From Nemertoderma westbladi (taxonomy: Eukaryota; Animalia; Xenacoelomorpha), in NCBI GenBank assembly GCA_032718475.1, contig JAUCBJ010001007.1, positions 7,674 through 71,673 on the forward strand: 64,000 bases of DNA, given 5' to 3'. Shown here piece by piece: positions 16,860 through 42,135 of this stretch (position 1 is the stretch's first letter; each line of letters opens with the position of its first letter). The position numbers and the translations under genes are program-made. The notes below the pieces were generated by a model. It made no database searches, was not told the DNA's origin, and saw only the letters and a program-made list of their open reading frames with translations.

Positions 16860-17494
16860 TGTGACGGGACCTTGGAGTTGGCAGTATAGATCCCGACCGG
16901 TGCGGTGTGTGTTATACGCGTCGCCGCGTCCATAGGCTGCTAAAGCTATAGTCTGGATGTGTATAGTAGGCCGAAAGGCCATTCAAATAACTGAGTTTTA
17001 CTGCCAGTGTTTATAATCGCAGAACGTAATAATAGCACAGTCTGAATATAATAGCACAGTAGTGACGACGATGGTTAAAACTGTTCCGGTCTCACAACTG
17101 TATAGGAACCAACTGAACCAGTAATCAATAACTGCAACGGTTATATTATTATTAACACATACTAAATCAGATCTACACTACTGAGTGGCCTGAGTGTCCA
17201 ATAGATGCGCTCTAATCACTCCCAATGTGCTCTACCACCCACCATTGGCTTAACATGATTAATTGTCACCTCACCACTCCCTGTTGCCACTATCCCACGT
17301 GCTAACCTTACTAGCCTGTTTGTCCCTCTGACGTGGTTTGACCTCTAAACTCTCCCTGTGACTTGTGGCGTGTATCGCATTAGTTGGTTGTGAGGTGACA
17401 TTATTATTGGTAATGTCACCTCGCCAACTATAATTGGTAAAATGCCACTAATCCCATTTTTGGTGGGTAGTGCAGGGAATTGAATCCGCTTACA
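16860..17494 (-). repeat. 3' LTR of element B
   Basis: Minus strand starts TGTAAGCGG right after the PPT and ends ...CCCGTCACA at the satellite edge; the second LTR is absent, so the limits are inferred. Confidence 0.7.
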
Positions 17495-18489
17495 CTCCCC
17501 CCCATGCTATCTTCCCGGTGAGAAGATAGCATCAACCTTAATTGCGCTTCAATTCCGCTGGAATCCAATCTAATATTGGATGTGGGTTGGAATTATCTTC
17601 TCGGGGTCGGCTTTCCAGGCTGGCCCTCATGGGTTTGTTATCACTGCCCATCCTTGGCACACCTGAGAGCTAGGATGTACCAAGGCATCTGGCATCTCTG
17701 CTTTAGACGATCGCCCTCACTCCTCACACAATTTTACCTCTCAGTCTTTGTTGTCCCTTCCTCTCTCGCCAGTCCCTTGGGACTCATCCCCCTCTATGCT
17801 CGCTCCCCACACTTGAATCTCGCACCTCTTTTACTTCCTCATACCCTAACACCTCCTCCCCATACTCCTCCCATACTCGACCCGTTTTTGCTGTCACTCT
17901 CCTCACACTCTTATCGAGTCCCACGCATGTGTACAGCATGTCAGTGAGATCCGTCTTTGTCCTGTCCTCCTGTTTCAGTCAATTAGTCCCCAGTCCCAGT
18001 AGCTAATTGGAAAAGGTTATATTCGACTATGATAGATCTATACTGATTATATATTGGGTATGTATATTGATTATTTTACGTATGTACATACTAATTGCAC
18101 TTAATTAAATTGCACTTAGGAGTTTGTACCGCTGCGTCCATGTGGTGCCTTCCAGGCACGTTGATATCCCCTGTCTTGGAGTTCTACATTGCTCCTCCCG
18201 CACCCTCCGGGAACCACCTAAGTTCCTTGACCCTGTCTTCATCCTGTCTGGGCCGCTACCTCCCTTCCTGTTTACCCTTGAGGCTACTCATCCTCGCTGA
18301 TACCGTCTTACCAAGCCCCTTTGTTGGTTCTTTGGGCGCGGGTGTTATTAACTCCTGGTATCGCTTCGCAGGTGGTCCCACTGAGTGTCCCTCCTGTCTC
18401 CCTCTGGTAGCGTCCCACAAGATCATCTTCATCGCACGCGGCACGTGTTCCCCCAGAAAGTCCCTGAATTCGACCCTATTTTCTGGTGA

Positions 18490-19341
18490 CTATCTGTCCA
18501 GATGTCTTTGGGTATTGATGACCCCTCCGTACGATGCCGCTGTCGCTACCTCCTGATATGTGAATGGTAGTCTCCTCTTGGTGATCTGCTGGTGAGCTTC
18601 TATATTAATGTTGAAGAAGCCCCACCGGAACTCCTGGGCCTTCATCCTTTGTCGTGTCATGACTCCGACGTCGGCCCACTCCTCGAAAATCCGGAATTTC
18701 TCCTCATAGTCCATCCAGTCGCACCGGCGATCAAAGTGCCCTCTAAACTTGCACTTCAAATATCTGTTGTGCAACCTCGGACAGGCACCCATCTTGAGAG
18801 TAGACTCGCGGCAGAAAAGACACGCCGTCCCCTTCTGGAAACGGTATAGACAGTTCTTTTGCTGATGGGTTAATCTCCCACAGTAATCGCAACTGTGCAT
18901 CATTGTCTCCCGCCCCAAGTCATCCTTGGCTCTGTGTGGCCTCCTGGGTCTATGGAGCCACTGGTAGGGAAACATCTGGACGTTGTCTTCCCTACCCATG
19001 TTGATGTCCTCCTCCACCCTCGGCATCGTTTCTCCAAACACTACCCATGGTGCCGTCCCTGGTTGCTCGCCCAGCCGGATCGTACTCGCCGCAAAATCCA
19101 TTGCCGGCTCCCCATGCTCCCAGGTCCGCTTACCGGGTTTGTCCCAGAAGGCTCTCGCCCTGCTGACCGTCACCACTCTCCCATCCACCCAGTCCGTGTT
19201 TGAGTGGCTGATCCTTGCTATCAGTGGCATCGCCCCAAACTCATCCTCTTCCTCTTCCCCTGGTGGGGGCGCAATCCCCTCTATCGGTGGCATCGCCAAG
19301 AACTCGTCCTCTTCTTCTACCCCTGCCGGGAGCTGATCCAA
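18490..19341 (-). CDS. Element B accessory protein C-terminal part: triple CCHC-like zinc knuckle (probably a frameshifted continuation of 19610-20650)
   Basis: CDYCGRLTHQQKNC, CLFC..GACP, CKFRGHFDRRC, then FEEWADVGVMTRQR; aligns by eye with 39197-40894. Confidence 0.7.
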   Translation of the reverse strand: MDQLPAGVEEEDEFLAMPPIEGIAPPPGEEEEDEFGAMPLIARISHSNTDWVDGRVVTVSRARAFWDKPGKRTWEHGEPAMDFAASTIRLGEQPGTAPWVVFGETMPRVEEDINMGREDNVQMFPYQWLHRPRRPHRAKDDLGRETMMHSCDYCGRLTHQQKNCLYRFQKGTACLFCRESTLKMGACPRLHNRYLKCKFRGHFDRRCDWMDYEEKFRIFEEWADVGVMTRQRMKAQEFRWGFFNINIEAHQQITKRRLPFTYQEVATAASYGGVINTQRHLDR

Positions 19342-19609
19342 ACCCGGGAGCCCAGTTAATCAACTGTGTCCCTTTCCACCCTGGTATCCGCCCATAGCCT
19401 TCCACCATACTACCTCCCTCGGTCTCTTCCTTCCGATGTCACCCTCAGAGCCTGCTGTGGCATGGGCATTCTTTGCAACCCCGATGTTGACTGTGTCGGT
19501 GTCTCTTCCATCCAACCCAGTTTGTCCCCCAGCCGAAACTCGTCCGAGGTCTCCGATCCCCACCTCAGCCCGTCTAAGTCCTGGGCTTCGAACTCATACT
19601 CCTCTCCTC

Positions 19610-20650
19610 TTATATCCGCTTCTCTGCCCACTGCCTCCTTTCTCTGGCGACTTCCTCTAGTCTCCTCTCCTCGACCCTATCAGCCTTCAATTTCCTCCAT
19701 CGCTTGTACGGTGTGTCTACCTCTCTGTCCACTAGGTGTCGGGTATTGTAATATACCGACTTGCCCTTCAGCCCCGGTTGATCTACAAGACATTTTAGGG
19801 CCACCTTAAAGGCTCTCCTGTGATTCAGAGGTGCTCCTGATAGTAGAAACGCCACCGGCTCCCTCCCCATAGTCACCGTAATGAATAGGTTTAATAAACC
19901 TATCATTATCCAATCCTCCTGTAGGATATATCTCTTCTGATATATCTTTATCACTCCCTTCCAGAAGTGATATAGTTCTTCCTTTCTTGGTCTCACTCCC
20001 CACTTGAGCGAGTTAGCAAGTTCCGCTCCGTATTCTTCCCGGAACTTGTTCCAGTCCATCGGCTTGTTGCAGACGAGTTCCATCAGTTGGCCCATCGCCA
20101 CGGCTCCGCCACGTCCCATGTTATCCACCAATCCCAATCCCTCTGGTTTCGTCATAGCCATGTAGACTACCTGCATGTCCAGGTCCACCTGCGTGCCCGG
20201 TCCAAAAATTCTATCTGCATCGTCGCGTATTGCCGATCCCACCTTGATCGTAGTTTTCTGTCTCACTAGTTCCTGCACCGCCTTCGGCAACCGGTTTAAC
20301 TTCGGCCCGCTTTTCTTTCCATATGTCCCTAGGTCGAATAGAAAAATATCTCCGTTCGGCGCTGCTAAGTGCAGCAATATAGTTCTAGCCAATCCTCCCG
20401 ACCCCATTTTCGAGCCCTCATCATCCTCCACAGTCCCTTCGTCGTCTAGGATCATGTATCCGCCCCTCTCCATGGAATCTACAAATCTCCTCCACTCCTT
20501 CCTCGGTGGTTCCCTCGGGTACTTTGGTATCCCGAACTTTGCCTCATCCCCCTTTACAACATAGCGAAGATGCTCGTCAATCGCGTTGTCCAACGATGGT
20601 CCTGACCAGTCGCCGATTGAGCATCTCCCTAAACTGATCCTGTAGCGCAT
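19610..20650 (-). CDS. Element B accessory DEDDy 3'-5' exonuclease (RNase D/WRN/EXD-like)
   Basis: ExoI ILDDEG; LHLAAPNGDIFLFDL; LPKAVQELV..TIKVGSAIRDD (ExoII); DLDMQ; Q.RYILQED (ExoIII-like). A likely original start near 20784 is frameshifted. Confidence 0.75.
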   Translation of the reverse strand: MRYRISLGRCSIGDWSGPSLDNAIDEHLRYVVKGDEAKFGIPKYPREPPRKEWRRFVDSMERGGYMILDDEGTVEDDEGSKMGSGGLARTILLHLAAPNGDIFLFDLGTYGKKSGPKLNRLPKAVQELVRQKTTIKVGSAIRDDADRIFGPGTQVDLDMQVVYMAMTKPEGLGLVDNMGRGGAVAMGQLMELVCNKPMDWNKFREEYGAELANSLKWGVRPRKEELYHFWKGVIKIYQKRYILQEDWIMIGLLNLFITVTMGREPVAFLLSGAPLNHRRAFKVALKCLVDQPGLKGKSVYYNTRHLVDREVDTPYKRWRKLKADRVEERRLEEVARERRQWAEKRI

Positions 20651-21224
20651 GCTCTTTGTGACCCTTTGGGAGATGGATTGTAGTATCCCTTTGCCTTGTT
20701 CTCCGGATGCCTCTGCGTGAAATCCATTAGCAACTCCTTCCTACTCTTCTCCGATTTCCTCTTCTTCACTAGTTTCTCCGCCATCACGAATCTGCACACT
20801 CTCACCTAACTGGTGGGGCCTTAGAAAGGCTCAGTTTTAGTAAGTGGGTCGTCAAACAGAATGTTATTAGTTCCGATCAGTGATGGCCTACCTCCTTTGC
20901 TGTGTTTTCCTGTAATTTCATACAAATATCCCCCCTATGTAACAATTTTTCATAAATTTACAATTTTGTCTGTTGCTTTTTATTAATGATTCTAGAGTTT
21001 CTCCCCCAGTTGCCATAATTTGTAAATTTTTACTATTATTTATATCCCCCCTTACATGTGCTATTATACTATCTGCCATCTGATTACTTACTTAAGTAAC
21101 CCGTCCCTACTTGTATACAGAGAAGACTAGCTACAGTTTTCTTATTACCGTACTAGCTTCCTACCAGACAGTTTCCTGGCTCTGTAACAATACGCTAGGT
21201 CTGCACTACAGGCTGTGCGCTACA

Positions 21225-21900
21225 GTAGTCCCTCCCTCAACTCCTCACATGGCACCCTCAGTGCCCACAAATTTACGGTACTATGTACCCTTTCACCACG
21301 GTATGCGTGCATACCCTCCCTCAACTCCTCACGTGGCGCCCTCAGTGCCCATAATTGTGCATATGTAAATTAAGTACGTTGGTACATTTTGTACCCATCC
21401 GACGTACGTATTTAACTACCTGCACCTATGTATCATGCACGCCGGCATGCCCGTACCCGTCTATTACGGTATGCTTACATACCCTCCCTCAACTCCTCAC
21501 GTGGCGCCCTCAGTGCCCATAATTGTGCATATGTAAATTAAGTACATTGGTACATTTTGTACCCATCTGACGTACGTAATTAACTACCTACACCTATGTA
21601 TCATGCACGCCGGCATGCCCGTACTCTTCTATTACGGTATGCATACATACCCCCCCTCAACTTCTCATGTGGCGCCCTCAGTGCACACAAGTTTACGGTA
21701 CTGTGTATGTGTACATACCCCCCTTCAACTCCTCACGTGGCGCCCTCATTGCCCACAAATAGTGGATATGTAAATTAGGTACGTTGATACATTTTTGTAC
21801 CAGTCCATCGTATGTAATTGCAACTACCTACACTTATAAATTATGTACGTTGGTACATCTGTACCCATCAGACGTACATAATGCCTACCTACAGCGTACC
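21225..21900. repeat. Internal tandem repeats (~175-bp and shorter units) of element B
   Basis: CCCTCCCTCAACTCCTCACGTGGCGCCCTCAGTGCCCA recurs five times, with GTACGTTGGTACATTTTGTACCCATC blocks. Confidence 0.85.
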
Positions 21901-22238
21901 TTGGTACTAGTGTTTTATTTATTTTATTTTTATTTTTGTGGGAAGGGTGTATCGCCCTCATTCCCACCCCCCTCAGTCCAACTTATTGGACGACTCAGGA
22001 ACCTAAGGGTGATTCTTCCAGCAGGCAACTCTCCCACTGCCCCCCTGTAGGTCATCTTATTCTTCGCCCCACTCTCCTTGTCAATTCCAACTCTCTTGGA
22101 TTTGACCTTCCCTTCTCCTCCACCCTAAAATCGGGTCTTTCCGTCACCTCACTGATCTCCTCATGGTCCCCTGGCAGCAAAATGCCACTCTTCATCTTGT
22201 CGTCATTTGGCTGTAGAATGCCGCCCTTCATGTCATCC

Positions 22239-23231
22239 TCACTGGTACATGCCACCTCTGCTGCCCCCCCCCCTCAATATGTGCGCCGGCGTTAAAGCCC
22301 CCGATGACCATTGGTCATCCTTTGGTACGCATAATGGCTTACCATTTAATGCCCCCTCGCACTCTGCCAGTCCCGTGTCCAACACATCTCCTCTAACTTT
22401 CCTACCTCCATTATCCTTCATGATCAGCTCCTCTCCCTTTGGATTAACCTAATTACATCCTCTCCCTTTCAACCTTGTCATCTTATTCGACATCCTCTCT
22501 ATCGGTATGCTTCTTAATTTGACCGGCGTCTCTTCCGGACATCTCTCCAGATATCTCGCCTTCCACTCTTCTCCATCCTCATACCAATACTCGCCAGGAA
22601 CATTTATGTTCCATCCCATCGCCTCTAGGTCCTGTGCGTCGAACCCATTCTCCTCCGCCCACTCCCTTGCTGTTACTTGTCGTCCTGTCTCCTCTACCAA
22701 CGGTACTTCTCCGGATTCGTCTTCCACGCTTTCCATTATATGTGGATCCAGATCCATACCCATCCCCGACTCCTGGTGTCCTTCCCCGGGCTGCTTCTCA
22801 TCTGGGACTTCCCCATCACCCGTCTTTGACTTCTGCTCGGGCCGCTTCCCATATGGGACCTCCCCATCACCCGTCTTTGGTTTCTCCTCTATGTCCTCAA
22901 CAGTAGCGGACAGCATGGAGCACCCTGGCATTATCGCTGCAATCTCGCATCGTCCCCTCCTCATCTTCATGACCTCGTCTTCGCTTGAGATCGTGGTCAC
23001 CGCCATTTTACTTGGCCTGGTTCGTAATCCTATCTTCACAGCCACCCAACTCTCCATTAGCGTGAATGCTGCTCCACTATCGACCAACATTAGTGTCGTA
23101 ACCGATAGCCCGTCCTCTCCTATTATTGTCACTGGTACTACTCCGAGTAGTACTGTCCTCTTCCTCCTTGCTCCCATGGTGCTCGTTGCCATGGTTTGGC
23201 CTCCAGTCCCATCAGTCTCGTCATATTTCAT
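22239..23231 (-). pseudogene. pol: Element B pol remnant: aspartic protease joined by deletion to the integrase C-terminus
   Basis: VLLGVVPVTIIG..LVDSGAAFTLM (Bel/Pao protease) and ECEGALNGKPL..ALTPAHIL (compare EIAAYLNERPL..ALTPAHFL in element A); no RT or RNase H between them. Confidence 0.75.
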
Positions 23232-23575
23232 CGGTGGTTCCTGGCACTCATCCTTCCAGTGTCATCCTACCGCGCATCGATGACATAGTCCATTCTTACA
23301 TATATAATACCTAATATACAGCTATTAGAATAATAAGATACAGCTATACAAAGGCAGAATTATATAGAGACACGGGTTAGTTACACTAGTACCCCCCCCC
23401 CCCCCCCCCCCCCCCAGTAAAATTTAATGGAATTTATATGATGGCAAAAAAACGAAAAGATCTTAGTTTTTTTATGCCGTTAATATATGCGTTTTTATGC
23501 GTTTTAATGATGCTTGCATGGCTTTTGGTGAGGTCAGTTTGTAACAAGAGTTATCATTCTTACGAATACTGGAGT

Positions 23576-24746
23576 TGTAAAAGCTTTTGCGGATATACTC
23601 AGTCCCCCTCGCCCGCAAGGTACCGTTATAGGTGTTTTAACGGACATAAAAGTCATTCTTCTATATACGTGCTTTGGCGGACATGGTAAGGCAAAAAACC
23701 CGCAATGCACCAAATACCTTTACACAGCTTAGCCTTGATGATTCAGATTACGACATCTAACAGCTGGTTGCTGACATGGAAACGGCCATTGGACACATGG
23801 TTCTTTGTTTAGCTTAAGCCAATCAGAGCGATTTTTTCTGTCGATGTGGAGATATTCGGCCGATCATACTAGGAGTGTTCAGTCTTACTGTTTTTTCTTG
23901 ATACTGTTGTGTTGTTTCTATCTAGGCCAGGAACACCGGCTCTAGAGTCAACTCGTTTTCATACTTTAGAAGAAACATTAGTAGGCTTAAATTATAGAGC
24001 GTATAACTGTTATCATATCATACTTATCGCAATTCAGTCTTACATTATCGGTTCAATATACATTATTATACTGCTATTTACTATTGTTTGGTTGAATATT
24101 ATTTGGAGAATATTTATAAAGAACCCAAATTTCCCAATTTTCTTGATACACTACAGGTTAGAGAGACGGGTTATATATAGCGATTGCGACTTATATTATT
24201 GTGGTTTGTAGTGAATTTAATGCTATTTGATAAGCACTACATGAGTCCGTTGCTGTTCTCTTTATATATGATAAAATTCATTGACGGTCGGCAAATTAGT
24301 GAGCAGTATTGTGTGTTACCGGTAGTGTGCCTGATTGTGACTGATAACTAAGCATTTCCTAAAGAATGCGCCTCATACGTGAATCATAAGCCTTACCGAC
24401 TTACCGTTGTGATTAGTATAAGTCATATCTCTGTTTACCTAGATAGAGCGCCACGTCCTAAAGGAACTGTTAATATTTCCCGAAAGTGAATAATATTAGT
24501 CAGAAATTATTTATTAACGATCAATCGAATAATACAGTAAGCTTACACTGCAATAATAATCTAAGCCCTCAGAATCCAGTCTCCCGGGTATATCCAGCGG
24601 GTGAATGGACGCGCACTAGGCTGGCTTCTGCTAATGTTGTGTTTATTGGTATTAAATATTTGTCAACTTCTAAAGTCTATTTATAAACCAAAAGACATAT
24701 AAATTTTGGCAGGTTAAACTGCTAAAGGTCTTCAAAAGCGCGTACA
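23576..24746 (+). repeat. 5' LTR of element A
   Basis: TGTAAAAGCTTTTGCGG...AAAAGCGCGTACA; roughly 98% identical by eye to 40973-42135; CCAAT box near 23819. Confidence 0.95.
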
Positions 24747-26980
24747 ATAACAGTTATTGTCTTTATTGCAGTAAGCAATAAAGTTGAAAGTACCGGTCGA
24801 CCGGTAAACCTGAACCGGTACTTCTGTAGGTCAGTAGGCCCAACTGCCAGAACCGGTACTGCTGTAGGTCCGTAGGTCCAACTGCCAGAACCGGTACTTC
24901 TGTAGGTCCGTAGGCCCAACTGTCCTAACCGGTACTTCCAGTATAAGTACATTAGTATTATTCGATTTTGATTATTGTATACTGGTAGGTCTTAGTATTT
25001 AATCAGGGACGGCCGCCCTGGTTTTTTATTGAGATTTTACTTATTTCTGTCGGTTTTATTTACATGTAAGTTAATATTGAGCTGAAGACGTGTAAGTCTG
25101 CTCAGATTGTTCAGATAATTGTAGGCCGGACTGTTGTCGGATTGTTGTTGGGTTTGGAGAGATTACTGCGTGTGTAGAGTTTGTCCGATAGAGTGCCAGT
25201 TAGTAAGTTGGGGCAGCCATAGCTGTAAGGTCAATCCCCTCTTAAAGAATAAGTCGTACTACCGTGTTAGAACGCATACTAACTAACCATTTTGGAATCT
25301 GCACATACTGTAGTTTATTTAGGCTTGACAGTATTCTGCCAACGTTTTGGCCTGTGTTTGTTTGTGTGGTCTGTTCAGGTACCGTAATAGTTATTACTCA
25401 GATATTTTGTAGGCTGGATTGTTGTCTAGCTATTATTAGGTCTGAAGAGATTGCTGCGTGTGTAGAGTTTGTCTGATAAAGTGCCAGTTAGTAAGTTGGG
25501 GCAGCCATAGCTGTAAGGTCAATCCCCTCTTAAAGAATAAGTCGTACTACCGTGTTAGAACGCATACTAACTAACCATTTCGGAATCTGCACATACGGTA
25601 GTTTATTTAGGCTTGGTGGTAGTCTGCCAGCGTTTGGTTTGTATTTTGTTTGAGTATTCTGTACGGGTAGCGTAATATTTATTATTCAGAGTTTATGCGA
25701 TTATTCGCAACATTCATGTCCCCAAGTTTATTCCTACAGTAATTGTGTTTGTTACACATACCGTTATAGTTAAATTAACCCCGGTACTACACGGGCTGCT
25801 TGGCGTAGGAAAAGACTGGTGACTTTGTGCTTCGGTCACTCCAGCAGATGCCGTGGTTCTTTTAACTGTTCAAGTATATTTAACTACTGATTATTTGTTG
25901 TACCAGTACTTGTACCTAATTTAGGGTTTAGTGTACAGTGCTTTCCGAAGTAATTAGTGTGTAGGCAGTATATTTGTGTTGTAAAGTGGTTAATAGGCAC
26001 GCTGGATCTGGTAGTCCGCGGTAATTAACTTCCAGGTAGGAACACTCCGTGATACATAACGTAGTACCTATAGCGATACGGCTATAGGTCGTCAGGCGGT
26101 GGTATTTTCCTATCTGGACAGTGCAATATATTTACTACTACTTATTATTTTCAAATACCGTAGTACCCTGTCCGTTGTAATAACCAGAATTCTAACCCTT
26201 TGTTAGGCTGGTTTGTAGACTTCCTGTAAAATTACCCTAAAATTTCGTACGTAATATTTTGTTGTGTTTAATTAGAGATTTAATCTCACCCGTATCGTAA
26301 GTAATTTGTAGTATTAAGTAACTTAGGTAAATTAGAATTATCTGTTTTAGTGTCCCATAGGTAGCACTTCACTGAGAGCGCACAGCTTCTGTGTAGTGAC
26401 TCCCCCAGAAATAATAACATTTATTTCAAATATTGACAAAACCCCTTTTAAACGGGTATATATCTATTATAAATCAACTCAAACGATTTATAAATAGTAG
26501 GCCTGCCATACAACAACTAGGTCTCAAAATCAGTTGGACTACTGCTTAAATAACGGTAACAAAGTAAGTTAAAGTAACCAAGTAACCCTAAAATATTCAG
26601 AAATTCAATTATTCTAAAATAATTGACATACCGGTATTTACCATAGGCTTATTATATTTATTTCTATAAATTTGGGCTGAAATCATACCGGTATTCTGTA
26701 ATTAATTCTAGTTCATAATTATACTTATATATACTATAAGTGTAAGCTGTATACCGGTATTCACGATAGGCCTATTATATATTTATATATATTTGTGCTA
26801 AAATTATATACCGGTACTCTGTGACAAACCTAGTTTACCATACTTATATATACTATAAGTGTATACCGGTATTCTAATATACTGTAATAAATTACCGGTA
26901 CTAGGCCAACGGTCATACTGAATTACTAGACTTGCTTTAACTGTAACTATAGCAGTAGGCATTCAACCGTATAGCTAAAC
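24747..26980 (+). promoter_or_regulatory. 2.2-kb 5' leader of element A with hairpins and internal repeats
   Basis: Three hairpins at 24744-24806; ~38-bp tandem units at 24812-24940; ~290-bp direct duplication (~25130-25420 and ~25420-25690); repeated ATACCGGTA motifs at 26625-26900. Confidence 0.7.
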
Positions 26981-29900
26981 ATGTCTGACACTCAGCAAAA
27001 CCTGTCAGACAGTCTAATCGATACAACCATCTGTGACACAGATAGGAGTGTGGAGCGATTAAGAAAGGAGTTCAGCTCACCTCCTACTGAAAGAAAGGTC
27101 ATCCCTCCAGTAGTAGTATCAGACCCTAAGCTAATCCAACACCATAGGTCTATCATCGGCACTCGGGCCCAAGTCAAACGGAACCAGGAAGCAGCTGTCC
27201 AACAGCAGCAACATCCTAGTCAAGAAACTTGTTCCCAGCGATCCGATAGCTCCAGTAGTGCGGATACTGCAGAGCTGACCCCCGAATGCGGAGTGCAGAT
27301 GGCGGCTACAGCCTACTCGGATCCCCTTCTCACCCTTCCTGCCGCAGTGCTAACTACTATATTGATTGCGGTGGAAGAACATCAAGCCGATTGGGCGAGA
27401 AGTATGAGAGCGACCCAAGATAGTTATGCGGGATACGCCAGGGAAGAATTGATGTCTATTGTCGAGTCACAATGGAACTTTCCCGGACCCGGACTCCCGT
27501 TTGATTTGTCCGAAGCTACTTGGGAAGATATACACAGGATGGGAGTGACTAAAGATACAATGGATCCAGCTGTTTGGAAGAGGTCGGCAGCAGGATATGT
27601 GCAGGGATTCTTCGGCTCCTTAGAGCGATTGGAAGAACAACTGTTTCGACAACCCCAAGGACCTCAAGAGCAGGAAGAGCTGCTTTATCAAGTACGTGAA
27701 AGAACCCTACGCATTAGACTAATCTTATCAGCCTTTGAGGAAACTTCCAAAAGAAGACAGGACACGTCGCTGCAGGTTGCTGTCAAAACTTGGTTCCAGC
27801 GGGTAGGTCTCAAAGTACAAGAAACGGCCCAGTGGAAATCCCAGCTGGCTGAGAGACTAACTTATGAAGAACCAACCGATGCCACCCTTTCTCAAGTGGA
27901 AAGCGAAGTGACCGCAGAGAGACCACGAACGAGAGACGCCATCGACATTTATCTGTCCGACTATCAGCGATTCCTAGGAGACGAAGAGTTGAGGAGATGG
28001 CTGTCTGGACTTTCCCCTAATAGTGAAGGAACCCAGCGTGTGTTGGACTCAATCGATGCTGAAATGTTAGCTGCAAACCAAGCTGAATTTGATGAAAAAC
28101 TTCGCCTCGCTAGAGTCCAGGAAGAAGAAGTAAAGAAAAGGCGGATAGAGGACCGAAAAGCAGCGGCAATCGCAGAAGCAGAAGCGGAAAGAAAGGAGGC
28201 AGCGGCAAAAGCAGAAGCAGAAGCACAAAGAAAGGCGGAAAAGGCAGTGGCAGAAGCAGAACGTAGAGCGTCGGAGCAGACTACCCAACTGGAGTTGGAA
28301 AATCTGCAAGAGACGCAAGACAACATAAATAAACAGTTAACTGCTAGTCGAATGCAGATGATGAGACGATCTACTCCAAAACGCCAGGGATACACATCAT
28401 CGGAGGAAAGCGAAACCACCGATCCTGAAGGCGGAGGAAATAGATCTCGTCTAAGCAGGCGTAGAAAAACATCTCACCGCCACAAATTGCCTAATTTGCC
28501 CCCGGCGGTTAGAAGACAACTAACTAGCGCAGACTTAGGCAATACAGAACCCACAGAACAAATTATTCAGGTCAAAAGACTCCCTACAATAGTTGATGAG
28601 CCTGAAATAATTAGGCCTGTCGTTCCCAAAGTCACTTCTGTGCTAGAGACCCCTGTACTTCCAGAGCTTAACTCTAAATTCCCTTTACACAGTACTACAC
28701 TGCCTGTACCCGGTAGAACAGTCCATGAGAATATCCCTGTCCTGGAAGCAGAGAGAGAAATCAAAGATTTGTCTCCCGTCGTCCAGCGTCGGCCCGCTAC
28801 AATGTTGGCGACTCCCGCTTCGGCGGTCGAGTGGGTAGAGGAGGGACGGCGGGGGATGAACCTCCTGCTCGGACAGATGCAGGAGACTGTCCACCAACTT
28901 AAGGGAACAGTAAGGGAAGGTAGGGCAGAATTGCAGGAAGTGCAGCAAAGTATCGCACTGGAACGCGACAAATTAGTCAATATACAAAAAGGCATACCAA
29001 TACCCCCTGTAACATTGTGTCAACCTGTTAGGTCTGAAGTATTACATGCGCAAGGTGTGGAGCCTACACGCATCTATACTGCTAGTGAAGTAGAAACTCC
29101 TATAGCAAACCCTATTAAGGGTGATTATAGACCTGTTATTAATGATATTCCCTATAGACATGATAATGATCCGAGAAATTTATATACCGATAATTCGATA
29201 TTAAATAACACGATGGCCCAAGAAAGCTTTACGCGTCAGATGGCTAGAACAGAAGCCCGCCAAGCGGTCAAAGTGGGAGAGATCGTCAAATTCAATGGAG
29301 ATGAGATGAAATGGTTACCTTTCAACGAATATTACAAAGACAGCATACAGAACTCTGTACTATCTAACGGAGAGAAACTTAGGTTCCTCATCAAGTGCTT
29401 GGAAGGACCTCCCAAGTTAATGGCGTTAAAGTTTATTGGACATCCAGAAGGATTAAGACAAGTTTGGGATACATTAAACATCAGGTATGGTAACCAGGAT
29501 AACATAGCTAAGTATTTGTATGCAAAATTAGTAGCCCCCCGAAACTTCCTTAGTAGCGGGATTATAGAGTTTTCCGATGAGATTCAGGAGATCTGTAGAC
29601 AATTGGACTGGTTAGGTAAGTCTCATGAATACCAGAGTTCCATGGTTATTGGAGCAGTAGTCTCTACTTTACCAAAGGGTGGAGTATGTACACGCTGGGA
29701 CAAGAAAGTGTTGTATATGAATGAGCAACAACGACGAAGCCCTACCATGGCTGATCTCATGTCCTTCTTAGATGGTGAGGTAAAACTACAACTCATCAAG
29801 CAGTCCAGAGAGAAAACATCGGAAAATAAGGTAAGTGAGAAACCCGCTTCTAGGAGAAGAGTAACACCGGTGTGTTACACTGACGACGGCGAAAGCCAAG

Positions 29901-30637
29901 CTTCTCAAGAAGAGGACAGCAGAAAAGACACCGATCGATCTTACTATGTTGACAAAACCTCAAAAGACGTAAGTAAATACAAGGCTCGAAACAACGATAG
30001 GAGAGAACAGGTTGCCAAGACCCCTCCTCAGTCTCCTAACAGAATGCACCGTAGAAAACCCGAAGAAAGAACGAGAGTGCATCAAGTTACCCAAGGTAAA
30101 GTGAGTAACATAAAACCTAACTGTGCGCTGTGCGACGGGACCCACCGTTTGAGTGCGTGTGCTGAATTTCTAAAGAAATCCCTTGTAGACAGACGTGCAG
30201 TCGTGTGGGACAAGCGGTTATGCTATAATTGCCTCAGACCAGGACACCAACGGCGAACCTGTTACTCTGACATAAAGTGTGCAAAGTGTGGCGCAAAACA
30301 TCACATCTTGTTACACAGTGAGTTCGAACGAGACAAACAGAGTCAGGTAAGTGAGCCCGAACTACATGTCCAATTCAGTGATGTAAATGACACTGATCAG
30401 GAGTCTGAGATGGAAGGATTCTATACTGACGAATTCTCCGACGCCAACGAATCCTGTTATCTAATCAATACCGCAGTGTATCGAGCACTTACTTATGAAA
30501 AGGACACCAACAATGAGTTTCCCCCAACTACTTTTGCCAGACAACCATCTTGGAAAGCTCCAACTTCCAACGTAGGAATCAGAGAATTTCCTGTAGTGCA
30601 GGTAAAAGAGTTCACGGTCCTAACAAAAGTTACATAG
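26981..30637 (+). CDS. gag: Gag of element A (long N-terminal extension)
   Basis: 1218 aa; KFNGDEMKW..KLRFLIKCLEG capsid-like region (DUF1759 type); three Bel/Pao knuckles CALCDGTHRLSAC, CYNCLRPGHQRRTC, CAKCGAKHHILLH. Confidence 0.92.
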   Translation: MSDTQQNLSDSLIDTTICDTDRSVERLRKEFSSPPTERKVIPPVVVSDPKLIQHHRSIIGTRAQVKRNQEAAVQQQQHPSQETCSQRSDSSSSADTAELTPECGVQMAATAYSDPLLTLPAAVLTTILIAVEEHQADWARSMRATQDSYAGYAREELMSIVESQWNFPGPGLPFDLSEATWEDIHRMGVTKDTMDPAVWKRSAAGYVQGFFGSLERLEEQLFRQPQGPQEQEELLYQVRERTLRIRLILSAFEETSKRRQDTSLQVAVKTWFQRVGLKVQETAQWKSQLAERLTYEEPTDATLSQVESEVTAERPRTRDAIDIYLSDYQRFLGDEELRRWLSGLSPNSEGTQRVLDSIDAEMLAANQAEFDEKLRLARVQEEEVKKRRIEDRKAAAIAEAEAERKEAAAKAEAEAQRKAEKAVAEAERRASEQTTQLELENLQETQDNINKQLTASRMQMMRRSTPKRQGYTSSEESETTDPEGGGNRSRLSRRRKTSHRHKLPNLPPAVRRQLTSADLGNTEPTEQIIQVKRLPTIVDEPEIIRPVVPKVTSVLETPVLPELNSKFPLHSTTLPVPGRTVHENIPVLEAEREIKDLSPVVQRRPATMLATPASAVEWVEEGRRGMNLLLGQMQETVHQLKGTVREGRAELQEVQQSIALERDKLVNIQKGIPIPPVTLCQPVRSEVLHAQGVEPTRIYTASEVETPIANPIKGDYRPVINDIPYRHDNDPRNLYTDNSILNNTMAQESFTRQMARTEARQAVKVGEIVKFNGDEMKWLPFNEYYKDSIQNSVLSNGEKLRFLIKCLEGPPKLMALKFIGHPEGLRQVWDTLNIRYGNQDNIAKYLYAKLVAPRNFLSSGIIEFSDEIQEICRQLDWLGKSHEYQSSMVIGAVVSTLPKGGVCTRWDKKVLYMNEQQRRSPTMADLMSFLDGEVKLQLIKQSREKTSENKVSEKPASRRRVTPVCYTDDGESQASQEEDSRKDTDRSYYVDKTSKDVSKYKARNNDRREQVAKTPPQSPNRMHRRKPEERTRVHQVTQGKVSNIKPNCALCDGTHRLSACAEFLKKSLVDRRAVVWDKRLCYNCLRPGHQRRTCYSDIKCAKCGAKHHILLHSEFERDKQSQVSEPELHVQFSDVNDTDQESEMEGFYTDEFSDANESCYLINTAVYRALTYEKDTNNEFPPTTFARQPSWKAPTSNVGIREFPVVQVKEFTVLTKVT

Positions 30638-33600
30638 TGAACGCCCTTCTTGACTCCAGCAGCACAGGAACATTCATCGATCAAGAACTAGCCGAAGATA
30701 TCTTTGCTGGACAACCCAAATTTCGGACTAAATTGAATATGTCAGGAATTATGCAGGTTTGGAAATCTACCCTAACGGCAGATTACTATGTAGGTGTGTT
30801 GTCCACCCCCCAGGATAAGTTAGGAGCACAAGGTATAAGGTCGGTAAAAATGGTAGCTATAAAGAACTTCGCTACTACTCAAGCAGACCTTTATAATTGG
30901 GACGAGGATGAGAGCATCCAACATCTTAAGATACCTCGATTCCAGACAGATTATCCTGGAGTGCAAATACTCATCGGCCAAAACGCGCATGAGGCGCTCG
31001 AAACATTAGAGAAACGGCCTGCTCAACCACAGCCACTGCAAACCTATGCGGTAAGAACTAGAGTAGGTTGGTACTTTACTGGCCCTTCCCACAGGACTCT
31101 CGAAGAGAGAATGCCACAAGAACGAATATACCAAGTAAACGATTGGGAAGTGGAGAGCAGTGAGGTGGACGAACTAACTGAGGAAACACCATACTCCTCA
31201 GATAATGACGACATCTACCAACTCTTCGATGAAGAGAACACAATCGACCTACTTACAGAAAACCAAACTTGGAAAAATCAGGTGAACCTATGTCAACTGA
31301 TTCGCCCATCGGAACCCATCGCTTACAATGACGAACTAAACGATGAGATAGAGCGCTACAACGCTAGAACTCGGGACGAACTAGCCATACGATTCTTTAC
31401 TCAAGAACTGGTAGAGCCCAATTCATATGATAAGGCCCTATCGATAGAAGAAGAAAGAGCCAAGCAAATCCAGGAAACAACTACACGTTTTTTAAAGGAC
31501 CAAGGTAGATATGAAATCGGCCTACCATTTCGAAAACGAGAACCTAGATTTATAAATAACAGACCCTTGGCAGAGAAAAGAATCGCTCAATTACATCGAC
31601 GCCTTACGGCTAATGCTTCAGCTAAAGAAATGTACCAAACTCAGCTGAAGAAATTTATAACAAAGGGATACGCGGAGCGAGTACCGGAAGGAACACCAGT
31701 GACCGAGAGAATGTATTACTTAACACATCATTACGTTCCCAAACCCGGTAAACCCCACGAAGTACGAGTCGTATCCGATGGCTCCGCCCTATATATGGGC
31801 CAATCCCTCAATTCCGAGTTGTTACCAGGACCCAACTTACTCCAATCTTTGTTGGGAATACTTTTAAGATTAAGACAATATTCCATCGCGTTCGCCTCCA
31901 ATATAGAAGGAATGTTCTTACAAGTCAAGGCGCTGGATAGAGATAGAGACAGCCTGAGATTTCTGTGGTGGCCGGAAGGAGACCTCAATCAGAAACCGGT
32001 AGAGTACTGGATGATCATCCAGGCTTTTGGAATCATATCAAGCCCTTCCAATGCCTGCTCCGTGGTGCGAACCACTGCGAATGACAAACGAGACTCCTTC
32101 TCAAAAGAGGTGATAGACAACATCAAACGGAATATATACATGGATGACAATTTAAGGTCCCTTCCATCAGTAGAAGAAGCCATAGATGTCGCAAAAGGAA
32201 CGGTAGAGTGTTTGAAAAGAGGTGGATTTCGACTGACGAAATTCACCAGCAACTCCCGTGAGTTTCTGGAAGCGATACTGGTAGCAGACCGAGGAGCGAA
32301 AGACCTAGACTTAATAAAGGACGATCTTCCTGAAACCAAGACGCTTAGCTTGAAGTGGGACACTGAAAGAGACATCCTGTTTTTTCAGTTAAAACAGCGA
32401 GATAATCCAGTTCGGACCAAACGGATTTGTTTAAGTATCCTGAGCACTTATTTCGACCCATTGGGATTTATTAGCCCAGTTATATTGATTGCTCGGAGTT
32501 TAGTACAACAAATGTGGCTTGAAAACCACTCATGGGACGATCCGCTTAAGGGAGAATTGTTAAAGAAATGGATGAAATGGGAAGATTCTCTACCTGCCAT
32601 CGAGAACTTTATAATTTCCCGTGCATATTTTGGCCATGTTCTTCCTACGTATTCTTATCAACTCCATGTGTTTGGAGACGCCAGCGACATGGGAATAGGT
32701 ATAGTATCATATCTGCGAGTCGAAACTCCGGATGGAATCAAAGTCGCCTTGGTTACCTCTAAGGCATTGATTAACAACAAGTTAAAGGTTCCTCGAGCGG
32801 AGTTAAAGGCGGCTTTATACGCTACAGCCATCGGCCGGAATGTAACGAAACAAATCGACTATCCACTGGAGAAAACGGTTTATTGGACCGACGCTTTACT
32901 CGTGTTGGAGTATCTAACCAATGAAGTCTGTCAGTTCAGCGTTTTTGTTACTAACAGGGTAGCTATTATTCTTAGTCGCACGAAGATAGATCAATGGAGA
33001 CATTGCCCTGGTACGATTAATCCAGCCGATATCGCCTCCAGGGGAGCAACTCCACAGGAACTGATAGATACTCCAGACTGGTTGGGTGGACCCGACTTCC
33101 TGAGCAAGGAAGAGGATAAATGGCCTCCTCACCTTACTACGGCGGAGATTAGACAAGCCAAGGGAGCGGAGACAGTCAAACCTAAAACCCGGGCGAGTAA
33201 ATCGAAGTTATTTAAACCGACTATCGATCTATCTGTATTACATGCTTCCGGAAACGATGCTTCGGATCCACAATCCCTCGCCACAAATAAGTCTGTTGTG
33301 GAAATTAGAGATAGAGATTGGACATCTGGAATACCAGACATCTCGCAAGGAATCTCACCCATGCTGCAGAGAGCAATGCATCACTACAGTTCCTGGAATC
33401 GGCTCTGTAAAGCCGTCACATATTTAAGGAGATGTTTTCATCATCACTACTCCAGGACGAAGACCATTAGTGATACCGCTCCATTGACATCTGCGCAAGT
33501 TCATGTTATTAAAAACTTACCCAAATATAAGACATCTGACCGTTTTCTAAAGGAGAAAATTAGCCACCAGGAGCATGAAGAAACAAATAAGCAGATACTG

Positions 33601-34995
33601 AGACTCCTGCAATGCTATGAGGATTCCGATAAGTATTTCCTGTTGTTGAGAAATCCGCAGATGCGCTTAAGGGATCGATTCTCTAGCACAATGATAGATG
33701 GGTTAATACGTGTTGGAGGAAGACTCACCAATGCGCCATTATCCTTTGACACTAAATTCCCCATACTCATTACAAATCTTGAAGTACAAATCAAGATGAT
33801 TGTAGATGTCCACAGCAAACTTTATCATGCTGGTAGAGAACGAGTTCTTAGCGAAATTCGAACTCGCTATTATTTTGATAAACCCCGTAGAGCTCTGAAC
33901 CAAGTTCTTAGGAACTGCATACCCTGTAGGAAAGCATTCAGTAGGCCTTTAACACAGCGAGAGGCAGAATTACCTAGGGAACGAGTAAGCTTCTATGAAC
34001 CACCTTTTACTAATACTGGTGTAGATTTATTTGGCCCTATCGAAGTATATCGTGCGAGGACTATAGTCAAGAGATGGTGTGTCATCTTCGTATGCATGAC
34101 TTGTAGAGCCATCCATCTCGATATGGTGAACGATCTATCTACCAACAGCTTCGTCTTAAGTTTACGCCGACAGATCGCTCGCTTCGGGACGAGTAATACC
34201 ATGAGATCGGACAAGGGAACGAACTTCATTGGTGCCAACAACGAAATACAGGCTTACGTGAAGGACTGGAACCAAAGACAGGTGGACGATCAGCTAAGGA
34301 TAACAGCGTCTAGCTGGACCTTCAACGCCGCCGACGCCCCTTGGTGGGGAGGAAGTTGGGAGAGATTAATTAGAAGTGTCAAAACCGCATTTCACTTTAT
34401 AGTGCCATGCCGCGCGTATCTCACCGACGAACTTTTGCGGACGTTAATGGAGGAAATAGCTGCCTATCTCAACGAGAGACCGCTTATGCCAGTTTCATCG
34501 AGTCCCGATTCCCTGGAAGCTCTAACACCCGCGCACTTCCTACTGAAGAAACCTGTAGCCATGCTCCCACGATCGGAGATTGCCGACGGAGACGAATACT
34601 GCCGTCAAACTTGGCAACTTATGCAGTTGCTATCCCGTCGTTTCGCTGACCATTTCGAGAAACATTATCTGCCCACGCTACAACTTCGAACTAAGTGGTT
34701 TGCGCAGCAAGAAAACGTCAGCGCCGGAGATATGGTGCTTATTGTAGATCCAGACCTCCCACGTAAACGGTGGCAGACAGGTCGTATCATCGAGACCCAC
34801 ATCTCGGATGATGGTTTAGTACGCTCGGTAGAACTCATCGTCAACTTCAAGAAGCCAGGCATAATCTTTGACGCAACAACTCAATCGCCCAGTTGGTCGT
34901 TTATGTTTACTGAAAAGAGACAGAGAACTCTCCGGAAACTACGGAAGGCAAGACACTCTTCCCACGACCACCTCCCTAATTCCTCAAACATCTAG
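30601..34995 (+). CDS. pol: Pol of element A (protease, RT, RNase H, integrase), -1 frame relative to gag
   Basis: ALLDSSS; YLTHHYV..VRVVSDGS; LRFLW; YMDD; VFGDAS, RAELKAA, WTDA, NPADIASRG; HSKLYHAG..CIPC; GVDLFGP, SDKGTNF, GSWERL. Confidence 0.95.
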   Translation, partial: GKRVHGPNKSYIVNALLDSSSTGTFIDQELAEDIFAGQPKFRTKLNMSGIMQVWKSTLTADYYVGVLSTPQDKLGAQGIRSVKMVAIKNFATTQADLYNWDEDESIQHLKIPRFQTDYPGVQILIGQNAHEALETLEKRPAQPQPLQTYAVRTRVGWYFTGPSHRTLEERMPQERIYQVNDWEVESSEVDELTEETPYSSDNDDIYQLFDEENTIDLLTENQTWKNQVNLCQLIRPSEPIAYNDELNDEIERYNARTRDELAIRFFTQELVEPNSYDKALSIEEERAKQIQETTTRFLKDQGRYEIGLPFRKREPRFINNRPLAEKRIAQLHRRLTANASAKEMYQTQLKKFITKGYAERVPEGTPVTERMYYLTHHYVPKPGKPHEVRVVSDGSALYMGQSLNSELLPGPNLLQSLLGILLRLRQYSIAFASNIEGMFLQVKALDRDRDSLRFLWWPEGDLNQKPVEYWMIIQAFGIISSPSNACSVVRTTANDKRDSFSKEVIDNIKRNIYMDDNLRSLPSVEEAIDVAKGTVECLKRGGFRLTKFTSNSREFLEAILVADRGAKDLDLIKDDLPETKTLSLKWDTERDILFFQLKQRDNPVRTKRICLSILSTYFDPLGFISPVILIARSLVQQMWLENHSWDDPLKGELLKKWMKWEDSLPAIENFIISRAYFGHVLPTYSYQLHVFGDASDMGIGIVSYLRVETPDGIKVALVTSKALINNKLKVPRAELKAALYATAIGRNVTKQIDYPLEKTVYWTDALLVLEYLTNEVCQFSVFVTNRVAIILSRTKIDQWRHCPGTINPADIASRGATPQELIDTPDWLGGPDFLSKEEDKWPPHLTTAEIRQAKGAETVKPKTRASKSKLFKPTIDLSVLHASGNDASDPQSLATNKSVVEIRDRDWTSGIPDISQGISPMLQRAMHHYSSWNRLCKAVTYLRRCFHHHYSRTKTISDTAPLTSAQVHVIKNLPKYKTSDRFLKEKISHQEHEETNKQILRLLQCYEDSDKYFLLLRNPQMRLRDRFSSTMIDGLIRVGGRLTNAPLSFDTKFPILITNLEVQIKMIVDVHSKLYHAGRERVLSEIRTRYYFDKPRRALNQVLRNCIPCRKAFSRPLTQREAELPRERVSFYEPPFTNTGVDLFGPIEVYRARTIVKRWCVIFVCMTCRAIHLDMVNDLSTNSFVLSLRRQIARFGTSNTMRSDKGTNFIGANNEIQAYVKDWNQRQVDDQLRITASSWTFNAADAPWWGGSWERLIRSVKTAFHFIVPCRAYLTDELLRTLMEEIAAYLNERPLMPVSSSPDSLEALTPAHFLLKKPVAMLPRSEIADGDEYCRQTWQLMQLLSRRFADHFEKHYLPTLQLRTKWFAQQENVSAGDMVLIVDPDLPRKRWQTGRIIETHISDDGLVRSVELIVNFKKPGIIFDATTQSPSWSFMFTEKRQRTLRKLRKARHSSHDHLPNSSNI

Positions 34996-36640
34996 GGACT
35001 CCCCAACGTGATACGTCTGGAGTGGGTGTATGACTACATTGTTTTATCTATTTTATTATATTTTTATATGCGAACTTTATTATGTACTTTATTATAATCG
35101 TTTTTATTCAATTTTATTTAGTAGAATGTTATTTTAGTGATTATTTAGTAGATTAGTGCAATGTATTAGTGTTTATTATGTACGTAATTACTTATAATAT
35201 ATATTTAGTGCGACGGCGAGAAAATAATTATTTTTCTCTTTCCTTACTGTCCGTATCATATTGTAAATACGTGACTACAGTAAGATGAAATGTCCGTACT
35301 TAGTAAAGTACAATAAAGCCACTACTATATTCAAGTATTATTGGTAGGCAGAGTATTAGGAATGCAAAGTTCAGATCCTCGTGTCTCGGCTAAACCAAGC
35401 TCTGGGTAGACCTTGGAAACGACTTGCCTCTTCACACTGACATTGCTTCGTGCGATATTGCTCTTCTACCTTATATTAAATAATACATATAGTAGCGTGA
35501 TGTCCCTCTAACAGTAGCGTAAAACGCAAATAAATCTGTTAAACCTTTTGACCATCTGTAATTCTAGTCGATTAAGATATCGCGGCACCCACCGATATAC
35601 TTGAAAGACAAATTCTAGAATCAGTGGTTAACGTCCCCAGACAAGTTCTGGAATAAATCGGTGCCCATCTTAAATATTAATTTAATATTTAGTAAAAATC
35701 TGTAAAATTCAGGTCCTTTGAAATTTCTAGTCAATTAAGATATCGCAGCACTTACCGATACTCTTAAAAGACAATTTTATAGAATTAAGGATCCTATGTC
35801 CCCAGACCTGCTCTGGAATCAAATTGTGTCAATTTTAACATCAAATAATAAAATTCACGGGAATAAATTCAAATTCATATTTTAAATGAATTTCATAAAT
35901 TGTCATTTTGTACAATTTATAACATTCCCAAAATTCCATTAATTAATAGATCATGGGAGCGGAGATTCATCCTATTGAGTGTATTAGAGTGCGAGAATCT
36001 CCAACATATAGTCAATAGCCGATAAAATTAATAAAATCATGCATAAAGAGGATATTGACAATTAAAGAATTATTATTAAATAGCATCCCAGATCTGTATG
36101 CATGAGAATTACCCTAATTCTACCGCTAGCATTCCATAATGTCACCATAGCAACACCCACGCTAGAATTAGAAGCAAGTTAAGAGAACAATAGAAAGCTT
36201 GTCACATTGCATAGCATAGAGAATACATAGCACACTGTTAGTATCCAAGGATACACAGTAATAACGTGACATTCTGGAAGGCACTGACTAACGGACAAAT
36301 GGCCTGTATGTGTATAATTGGTGACAGTTGTGTGGAATTTGTGCGTTTATAGGTGAATGTTACTGCTAAAGTATGTTTACAGTAGCTAGTCGCAATTGTA
36401 AAAGTAGCCCAACTCCCCTATAGAAAGAACCTAAGTGGATCCAAGCCTTTGGGACGGACAGTGGAGTGACTTGTGCCGGTTATCGTTGTCGTGCTGTTGC
36501 TACATGTTGGCGTAAACACCGCGACGACGGTACATCGGCGCTGAGAATCCCACTGTCCGGGGGCAAAGAGAAGTAGGCAGCGACGCCCGCTCGCCTAAAA
36601 TATAAACTTATTTTGATATTAATAAACTCAGATAGCAGAT

Positions 36641-40894: not shown

Positions 40895-40972
40895 CTGTTT
40901 AGAGTATTTACATATATTAGAAACTGTGATTTTTGTATATTTATAAACTTGAATCCCATTTTCTGGGAGCGG

Positions 40973-42135
40973 TGTAAAAGCTTTTGCGGATATACTCAGT
41001 CCCCCTCTCCCGCAAGGTACCGTTATAGGTGTTTTAACGGACATAAAAGTCATTCTTCTATATACGTGCTTTGGCGGACATGGTAAGGCAAAAAACCCGC
41101 AATGCACCAAATACCCTTACACAGCTTAGCCTTGATGATTCAGATTACGACATCTAACAGCTGGTTGCTGACATGGAAACGGCCATTGGACACATGATTC
41201 TTTGTTTAGCTTAAGCCAATCAGAGCGATTTTTTCTGTCGATGTGGAGATATTCGGCCGATCATACTAGGAGTGTTGAGTCTTACTGTTTTTTCTGGATA
41301 CTTGTTGTTTCTATCTAGGCCAGGAACACCGGCTCTAGAGTCAATTCGTTTTCATACTTTAGAAGAAACATTAGTAGGCTTAAATTATAGAGCGTATAAC
41401 TGTTATCTTATCTTATCTCAATTCAGTCTTACATTATCGGTTCAACATACATTATTATACTGCTATTTACTGTTGTTTGGTTGAATATTATTTGGAGAAT
41501 ATTTATAAAGAACCCAAATTTCCCAATTTTCTTGATACGCTACAGGTTAGAGAGACGGGTTATATATAGCGATTGCGACTTATATTATTGTGGTTTGTAG
41601 TGAATTTAATGCTATTTGATAAGCACTACATGAGTCCGTTGCTGTTCTCTTTATATATGATAAAATTCATTGACGGTCGGCAAATTAGTGAGCAGTATTG
41701 TGTGTTACCGGTAGTGTGCCTGATTGTGACTGATAACTAAGCATTTCCTAAAGAATGCGCCTCATACGTGAATCATAAGCCTTACCGACTTACCGTTGTG
41801 ATTAGTATAAGTCATATCTCTGTTTACCTAGATAGAGCGCCACGTCCTAAAGGAACTGTTAATATTTCCCGAAAGTGAATAATATTAGTCAGAAATTATT
41901 TATTAACGATCAATCGAATAATACAGTAAGCTTACACTGCAATAATAATCTAAGCCCTCAGAATCCAGTCTCCCGGGTATATCCAGCGGGTGAATGGACG
42001 CGCACTAGGCTGGCTTCTGCTAATGTTGTGTTTATTGGTATTAAATATTTGTCAACTTCTAGAGTCTATTTATAAACCAAAACACCTATAAATTTTGGCA
42101 GGTTAAACTGCTAAAGGTCTTCAAAAGCGCGTACA
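40973..42135 (+). repeat. 3' LTR of element A
   Basis: Direct repeat of 23576-24746, preceded by the PPT and followed by TSD GGAGT. Confidence 0.95.

Follow-up and report, generated by a model that had tools for sequence, protein, structure and literature searches.

Two retroelements that share no evident DNA similarity lie next to each other in a 64,000-nucleotide stretch of the Nemertoderma westbladi genome (contig JAUCBJ010001007.1; hereafter the window, in whose coordinates all positions are given), and each carries an additional gene, ORF3 (open reading frame 3), between its integrase and its polypurine tract. One is a full-length Bel/Pao element (element A, plus strand) and the other a degraded element (element B, minus strand). 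An original prediction proposed that both genes join an exonuclease to zinc knuckles, which raises the question of whether such dissimilar elements hold a common accessory gene, and what it does for them. We consider it fairly probable that a homologous, selected, RNA-binding accessory gene of exonuclease type is carried by these Bel/Pao elements, a reading that builds on the observed layout, knuckle and motif homology, exonuclease motifs, multi-copy status, and purifying selection in the families of A and of a metagenome relative, L171.

Related third genes in two dissimilar elements

ORF3 of element A (~1,420 codons; 36626..40894, +) lies behind a spacer containing a short repeat and comprises, in order, a long N-terminal part, an exonuclease domain (about 38700-39500), three knuckles (39965-40162), and a weak post-knuckle motif; a single in-frame stop at 39122-39124, found only in this copy, divides it into an upstream and a downstream ORF. 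The B counterpart had been described as a single ORF at 18490-20790, but it consists of two ORFs in different frames on the minus strand. The 5′ part (19610..20740) contains a predicted DEDDy-type 3′-5′ exonuclease domain, recognized by its motifs and by profiles, and the 3′ part (18490..19359) contains an acidic linker, CCHC-type knuckles (about 18721-18891), and a conserved post-knuckle motif located by profile (about 18600-18700), and matches a profile built solely from metagenome sequences at E 2.8e-15. Reading frames and contig differences place stops and a frame change in the broken linker between them (19360..19612). A pattern scan allowing two mismatches finds the three knuckles proposed for B, but only the first is complete; in this copy the His is missing from the second and the leading Cys from the third. 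As predicted, both modules follow the integrase (in B, its relic) and a repeat-bearing spacer, and precede the polypurine tract.

The elements are indeed dissimilar in DNA (best blastn match 20 nt, E 0.37), and all of the peptides quoted in the prediction are present. The proteins align in order at ILDDEG/TYDNEG, at LP..KVGS/LP..KIGS, and in the knuckle regions, but the first motif pair had been set out of register: optimal alignments pair ENATKEW of A with EPPRKEW of B, and HMKY with HLRY, ~26 residues away from the proposed pairing. The pairwise resemblance is modestly significant. BLASTP gives 25 and 28 bits; when whole natural ORFs are compared, 4/1000 shuffles reach the score of the A upstream ORF against the B exonuclease ORF (9/1000 in a separate alignment) and 3/1000 that of the A downstream ORF against the B knuckle ORF (2-3/1000 across tests), with 552/1000 for the A downstream ORF against the B exonuclease ORF. 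The combined p is 3e-4 with BLOSUM62 and 3e-5 with BLOSUM45. This signal comes from ExoI-ExoII plus the knuckles; it is not carried by the C-terminal half of the exonuclease alone (2376/3000 shuffles reach the score) or by the FEEWAD/WEANAD pair on its own (2034/3000), the latter having been offered as a point of similarity. At 57, the A-B exonuclease score is on a par with the 55 that B obtains with the highest-scoring of 86 bacterial DEDDy enzymes. An ungapped A-B match, spotted on inspection of the ExoIII region, was discarded with a score of 1.

The same gene behind the pol genes of distant Bel/Pao elements

A metagenome collection was scanned with a degenerate pattern modeled on the spacing of knuckles 2-3 in A and B, yielding 121 loci from 47 of the 64 collection parts; all were scored, and 15 were chosen by score and by eye. 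These 15 carry both knuckles and motif, and are L200, L147, L144, L214, and 11 loci of one family. At locus L200, a 786-codon ORF comprising exonuclease, knuckles, and motif starts ~60 bases behind a Bel/Pao gag-pol and precedes a polypurine tract, and in L171 the end of a Bel/Pao pol precedes a 1552-codon ORF of the same plan. In both, DUF5641 and integrase domains lie upstream of ORF3 and a polypurine tract downstream; A17 is seen in L200, the L171 contig beginning inside pol and not extending back to it. These are the two of the 15 loci that reach a pol, and in both it is a Bel/Pao pol with ORF3 behind it; none of the other 119 loci matches the A pol, most of the 15 not being long enough to extend into a pol. 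The view that the gene is not a one-off capture is thus borne out by its presence behind Bel/Pao pol in the distant L200 and L171, whereas the short gap in L200 removes the repeat-containing spacer as a defining trait.

The post-knuckle motif has a consensus of roughly F-E-x-[WYF]-A-D-x-G-x-x-T-x-x-R, then G-[WA]-x-F-F, with no Pfam family. A profile of the 60 residues behind the last Cys, built from seven relatives and no window sequence, gives B 18.5 bits, a score reached by 0/500 shuffles and 0/51 other knuckle loci; in leave-one-out comparisons, 0/300 shuffles reach the scores of B, L200, L147, L144, and L214, with L171 marginal at 15. The suggestion that this could be an unnamed domain therefore holds for B and four relatives, in which it is conserved and without a Pfam family, but the motif is weak in A. 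Element A is tied to the group through L200, whose exonuclease C-terminal half matches the A downstream ORF at 1/500 shuffles (p 5.6e-5), and a module profile run over the window gives scores below E 0.5 for only two of its 1153 ORFs, the knuckle ORFs of B and A. Among solved structures, the best match of the knuckle profile is Air2 (E 2.6e-06), a member of the TRAMP RNA-surveillance complex; Air2 differs in having no exonuclease, and the match, confined to the knuckles, could stem from CCHC spacing of a generic kind. For the knuckle part of B, the ESM Atlas returns CCHC clusters (best score 0.88), which we take as a lead only. Together, the sequences point to a real accessory gene with an unnamed motif, invisible to Pfam, in at least four Bel/Pao contexts.

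Three other features of the metagenome loci are recorded here. Downstream in L171 there is a further piece of Bel/Pao gag-protease (L171:40-792); ORF3 of the L171/L143 family has an ~850-residue low-complexity N-terminal part, and a long ORF overlaps it in another frame (L143:40-4815); and L142, L165, L173, L176, and similar loci share a C-x2-C-G-x5-H-x4-C-P-x-L-[YF]-x-R-C knuckle pair without the post-knuckle motif.

A candidate DEDDy-type exonuclease

Pfam has no exonuclease match in A, B, or their relatives; in the ESM Atlas, the first named hit of the B exonuclease is PF01612 (score 0.93, 170 shared features), a family found on 50% of cluster members. A DEDDy profile made from bacterial RNase D, NrnC, and EXD2-like proteins, thinned to 86 of 248, scores B, L200, L171, and L143 above 300/300 shuffles each, and the A upstream ORF above 299/300; the A downstream ORF is not scored by this mixed profile, and an RNase D profile reaches it at 4/300. 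The program hhalign aligns B with the DEDDy enzymes colinearly across the whole set of motifs (163 columns, E 4e-4, probability 35%). The motif residues of B are D99/E101 in ExoI, D174 in ExoII, and Y271...E275/D276 in the ExoIII region. ExoI D-x-E is present in A, B, and the L171 family, the ExoII Asp in all five lineages aligned, and ExoIII Y-x3-D in L200 and the L171 family, with L171, L143, and L193 keeping D-E, D, and Y-x3-D throughout. With the EXD2/WRN/Egalitarian/RNase D group (PF01612) the element domain shares ExoI D-x-E, K[VI]G...D at ExoII, and DTQ-like and W..P blocks in the same order, but it is too diverged for Pfam and the host subfamily of origin is not assignable. Foldseek, run on the low-confidence second of two AlphaFold models, returns mostly DEDDy proteins in its top rows (phage Pol I, EXD2, and ExnV1; E 0.014-0.04). 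The domain in B, A, and their relatives is likely to be a DEDDy-type 3′-5′ exonuclease, as judged from sequence.

Wider searches returned few relatives. None of 1.84 billion protein representatives is related to the B exonuclease ORF; a first homologue search with it, and one with residues 560-832 of the A upstream ORF, found none among proteins of near lengths. Searches of PDB sequences with B and with exonuclease alignments gave nothing relevant, and tblastn against phages and plasmids gave no matches or chance matches (L001 and L002 are without a Pfam match). Among 301 bacterial genomes there are five weak matches to B (E 0.009-0.045), and scans of viral contigs found no relative except one element that we label gypsy-like and used as an outgroup. 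One of ten proteins looked up in a protein collection is present, as a singleton.

Other copies and selection

Other copies were judged from Logan contigs of the organism, from three runs and two samples, aligned to the window. In each of the three runs, all 30 bins of element B are covered, by 6,377-9,309 pieces that are 85-99% identical to it. None of the contigs reaching across position 19362 agrees with this B copy (23 in run X1, 29 in X2, and 19 in X3), and gaps interrupt three listed pieces that cross 19273-19563, so that the split in B ORF3 is best read as decay of this copy; intact B copies would encode one protein, as in L200, L143, and L171. The A stop is likewise private: it is absent from all contigs that cover the site (61, 35, 53, and 4 differing contigs, the full depth), and programmed readthrough was rejected.

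Purifying selection acts in the families of A and L171, in agreement with the prediction that the gene is selected. In the A family there are no indels among contigs across 38880-39360, and of the 40 differences listed, out of 89, 33 fall at third codon positions (p 2e-10). Five comparisons within the L171 family give ratios of nonsynonymous to synonymous substitution rates (dN/dS) of 0.047-0.122, although dS is close to saturated.

Points against a shared exonuclease gene

Several observations weigh against a homologous, selected exonuclease gene in these elements. Catalytic residues are not uniform: the ExoI Glu is missing from L200, Glu stands in place of Asp in the ExoIII column of B, where Asp comes next, and no clear ExoIII can be assigned in A. 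The AlphaFold models are poor (predicted local distance difference test scores of 37 and 43), and a VIA structure comparison found nothing above Z 4.4. The B exonuclease does not match those of L200, L171, and L143 significantly (308, 118, and 408 of 500 shuffles), and family profiles of the exonuclease C-terminal half miss both B and A. Similarity among the knuckles is partly built in, as the scan pattern was derived from those of A and B. The motif is least secure in A, which scores 0.7 bits on the motif profile (35/500 shuffles), fails in the leave-one-out comparison (179), and gives a pairwise p of 0.11-0.51; its knuckles and motif together reach 36.5 bits, only slightly more than the 33.4 of the best of 99 unrelated knuckle loci. 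In the two B ORFs the 13 listed differences are evenly spread over codon positions, and provide no test of selection.

Organization of the elements and the window

Element A (23576..42135, +) is identified as a full-length Bel/Pao element by long terminal repeat (LTR) comparison, target duplication, and domains. It has paired TG...CA LTRs (23576-24746 and 40973-42135; 14 mismatches in 1163 aligned bases), a polypurine tract, and a 5-bp target duplication, with gag at 26975-30637 (DUF1759 in Pfam) and pol at 30517-34995 (Peptidase_A17, Integrase_H2C2, and DUF5641). The domain order of protease, reverse transcriptase (RT), RNase H, and integrase, with DUF5641 behind the integrase, is of Bel/Pao type. 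ORF3 occupies the env slot, though Pfam finds no envelope-like family in it. Protein-level damage is apparent in pol, the end of whose ORF departs from the family alignment, and this copy is probably inactive. Inverted pieces of the A LTR (73-78% identical) at 2580-3780 probably remain from an older solo LTR that belonged to a related family.

Element B (16860-23575, −) adjoins the left LTR of element A. From 5′ to 3′ it contains a gag zinc knuckle remnant with a stop (23244..23285), a protease ORF (22449..23261) that passes through a short repeat linker into a degenerate relic of the integrase C-terminal half (22000..22680), a spacer of 168-bp tandem repeats (21201..21893, from repeat comparison), the two ORFs of ORF3, ~1 kb, a polypurine tract (17495..17503), and, directly after it, a TGT...ACA end (16860..17494). 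This end abuts a 30-bp tandem array and is covered by contigs of other copies; the LTR proposed for B thus exists as a TG...CA end with a polypurine tract, but it is single and unpaired, with neither a partner nor a target duplication found within the window. The protease matches Asp_protease_2 (E 4.4e-06), a generic Pfam family rather than one specific to Bel/Pao. The integrase relic resembles Bel/Pao tails weakly (2/300 shuffles reach the score) and the L171 integrase weakly (tblastn E 0.026), and its core part alone is not significant (33/200 shuffles). Pfam and sequence comparison find no RT and no RNase H in B, and integrase only as this relic. Element B is cut off upstream of the gag remnant, and nothing related to its 5′ remainder was found past the right flank of A or elsewhere in the window. 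It is a decayed copy of a multi-copy, Bel/Pao-derived family that probably lacks pol. Just 1% of the B pieces run into unlike sequence, and two contigs form bridges, one across 22269-22664 with unchanged spacing and one across 22660-22855; the family probably shares the protease-to-relic layout, although no listed contig spans protease to relic in one piece, which counts against it.

Elsewhere in the window there are three single-ORF genes for Cys-loop ligand-gated ion channels (6491-8119, 43665-45368, and 59177-60904, +), the first matching Neur_chan_LBD/memb and the last two lying in a 2.3-kb duplicate at 91% identity. Two arrays of one 30-bp satellite-like unit occupy 15242-16859, which the B LTR end abuts, and 51991-53410, and an unrelated 30-bp array is at 7-785. 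A long inverted repeat at 13412-14542 (92-95% complementary, short loop) resembles a miniature inverted-repeat transposable element or a foldback element, and ORF remnants at 46492-48207 (+) and 62731-63242 (an inverted copy, 68%) resemble, in our reading and with no Pfam match, the end of a non-LTR retrotransposon.

Descent of the gene

The A and B genes may descend from one ancestor through a chain of similarities in which the exonuclease C-terminal half links A with L200, and knuckles plus motif link L200 with B. The prediction went further, and proposed vertical inheritance within one Bel/Pao sub-clade. The pol trees, from which the B relic was omitted, include a decayed third Bel/Pao remnant, element C (49645-51664, −), in which an RT/RNase H region runs into an integrase C-terminal half; it is as close to the A pol as the ORF3 bearers are, and no ORF3 was found downstream of its integrase. 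In the integrase C-terminal-half tree, L200 and L171 group together (98/97), with A and C unplaced; a clade of ORF3 bearers (p 0.156 in the approximately unbiased test, p-AU) and a clade of A and C (p-AU 0.175) are both unrejected, so this tree neither supports nor rejects the proposed sub-clade. There are no starred branches in the RT and knuckle trees.

A competing account is that the module is mobile and has been swapped among retroelements, or that exonuclease and knuckles were captured more than once, with no single Bel/Pao clade; we rate it as an appreciable minority possibility. Bdelloid rotifers provide a precedent, as DEDDy ORF3s were acquired there on at least two occasions and are also present in Athena elements (PMC5408684). 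The poorly supported trees also favor swapping, as does element C without a visible ORF3; the A exonuclease is closest to L200, the A knuckles group with L144/L214 (82/83, unstarred), and the L200 pol groups with L171. Against it stand the same domain order and family-specific post-knuckle motif in four Bel/Pao contexts, the Bel/Pao pol at both loci that reach one (2/2), and the ORF3-bearer clade that is not rejected.

The rotifer LTR retrotransposons Juno and Vesta, whose DEDDy (RNase D-like) ORF3 is shared with Athena/Terminons (PMC5408684; also treated in PMC6431247 and PMC5718144), are close parallels: they too have a non-envelope ORF3 behind pol with a DEDDy-type exonuclease, its function being a prediction in both cases. 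They differ in that the carriers here are Bel/Pao elements and the exonuclease is fused to tandem CCHC knuckles and the unnamed motif. The DEED signature of the rotifer proteins (PMC5408684) is absent, the third acidic residue being Asp in A, B, L200, and L171, and selection is purifying here, in contrast to no departure from neutrality in the rotifer study (PMC5408684). Dada DNA transposons (PMC3706591) also bear a DEDDy exonuclease, but within the transposase of a DNA transposon. The accessible text of PMC11662393 makes no statement on an exonuclease ORF3. A literature survey, with older subscription papers mostly outside its scope, found no report of an exonuclease ORF in a Bel/Pao element. 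For the Cer elements of C. elegans, extra domains are reportedly listed in older papers.

Possible roles

If the accessory gene encodes an RNA-binding exonuclease, the knuckles would grip single-stranded RNA, and the exonuclease domain would trim or cap its 3′ end, a mechanism like that of trypanosome RNase D. In TbRND of Trypanosoma brucei (PDB 7c42) both RNA binding and efficient trimming depend on the CCHC domain, and the authors of that study describe the combination of a DEDD exonuclease with tandem CCHC fingers as very unusual (PMC7797062). The same plan, with tandem CCHC fingers behind an exonuclease on a single chain, is found in L200, L143, L171, and the A family; TbRND, however, is a mitochondrial host enzyme with four regular fingers, and the likeness is one of working, not of membership. 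It has no row in the profile searches and one weak Foldseek row (7c4c, E 0.15). The substrate may lie among the element's own RNAs, to which we give slightly less than an even chance; we favor this substrate because the B family, seemingly without RT, RNase H, and most of the integrase, has kept gag, protease, and ORF3, as expected for a gene that benefits its own RNA.

A protein that is mainly an RNA-binding adaptor, localizing or packaging element RNA with a dispensable or dead active site, is a rather doubtful alternative, though one to be taken seriously. Egalitarian retains its DEDDy residues but binds RNA and functions without any of them, and EXD1 has no activity (bioRxiv 10.1101/2025.08.03.668247); moreover, catalytic residues are altered in L200 and not settled in A and B. 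The L171/L143/L193 family, however, keeps its full set under dN/dS of 0.05-0.11, and A and B keep their ExoI and ExoII acids.

A shade less probable still is action in trans against host small-RNA silencing, with the protein degrading or sequestering piRNA/siRNA guides or precursors. Its env-slot position with no envelope-like match, the role of host DEDD relatives in piRNA pathways (PMC5408684), and the many copies reached by both the A and B families would fit such a suppressor, all by inference; a pol-less passenger family should readily lose a trans-acting gene, yet B appears to keep it. That the A-B resemblance is chance plus generic motifs, as the 25-28 BLASTP bits and the missing Pfam exonuclease match might suggest, is very improbable, given that the layout recurs behind Bel/Pao pol in independent relatives and that, in the profile results, just the two knuckle ORFs stand out in the window.

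Implications

The boldest form of the proposal is that an ancient, widespread Bel/Pao lineage swapped its env slot for an RNA-surveillance enzyme combining an exonuclease with Air2-like knuckles and a novel domain; this enzyme would disarm small-RNA silencing by the host or mature element RNA, and would be so useful in cis that a parasite family without RT keeps it; we regard this as speculative and improbable in its entirety. Genes of this kind, being invisible to Pfam, have probably gone without annotation or been mistaken for genes of the host. What exonuclease cargo does in retroelements has been a standing question since the rotifer study, and such cargo is found here in a different superfamily, fused to knuckles and under purifying selection; the intact genes of L171, L143, and L200 are available for assay, and the motif allows a census across animal genomes.

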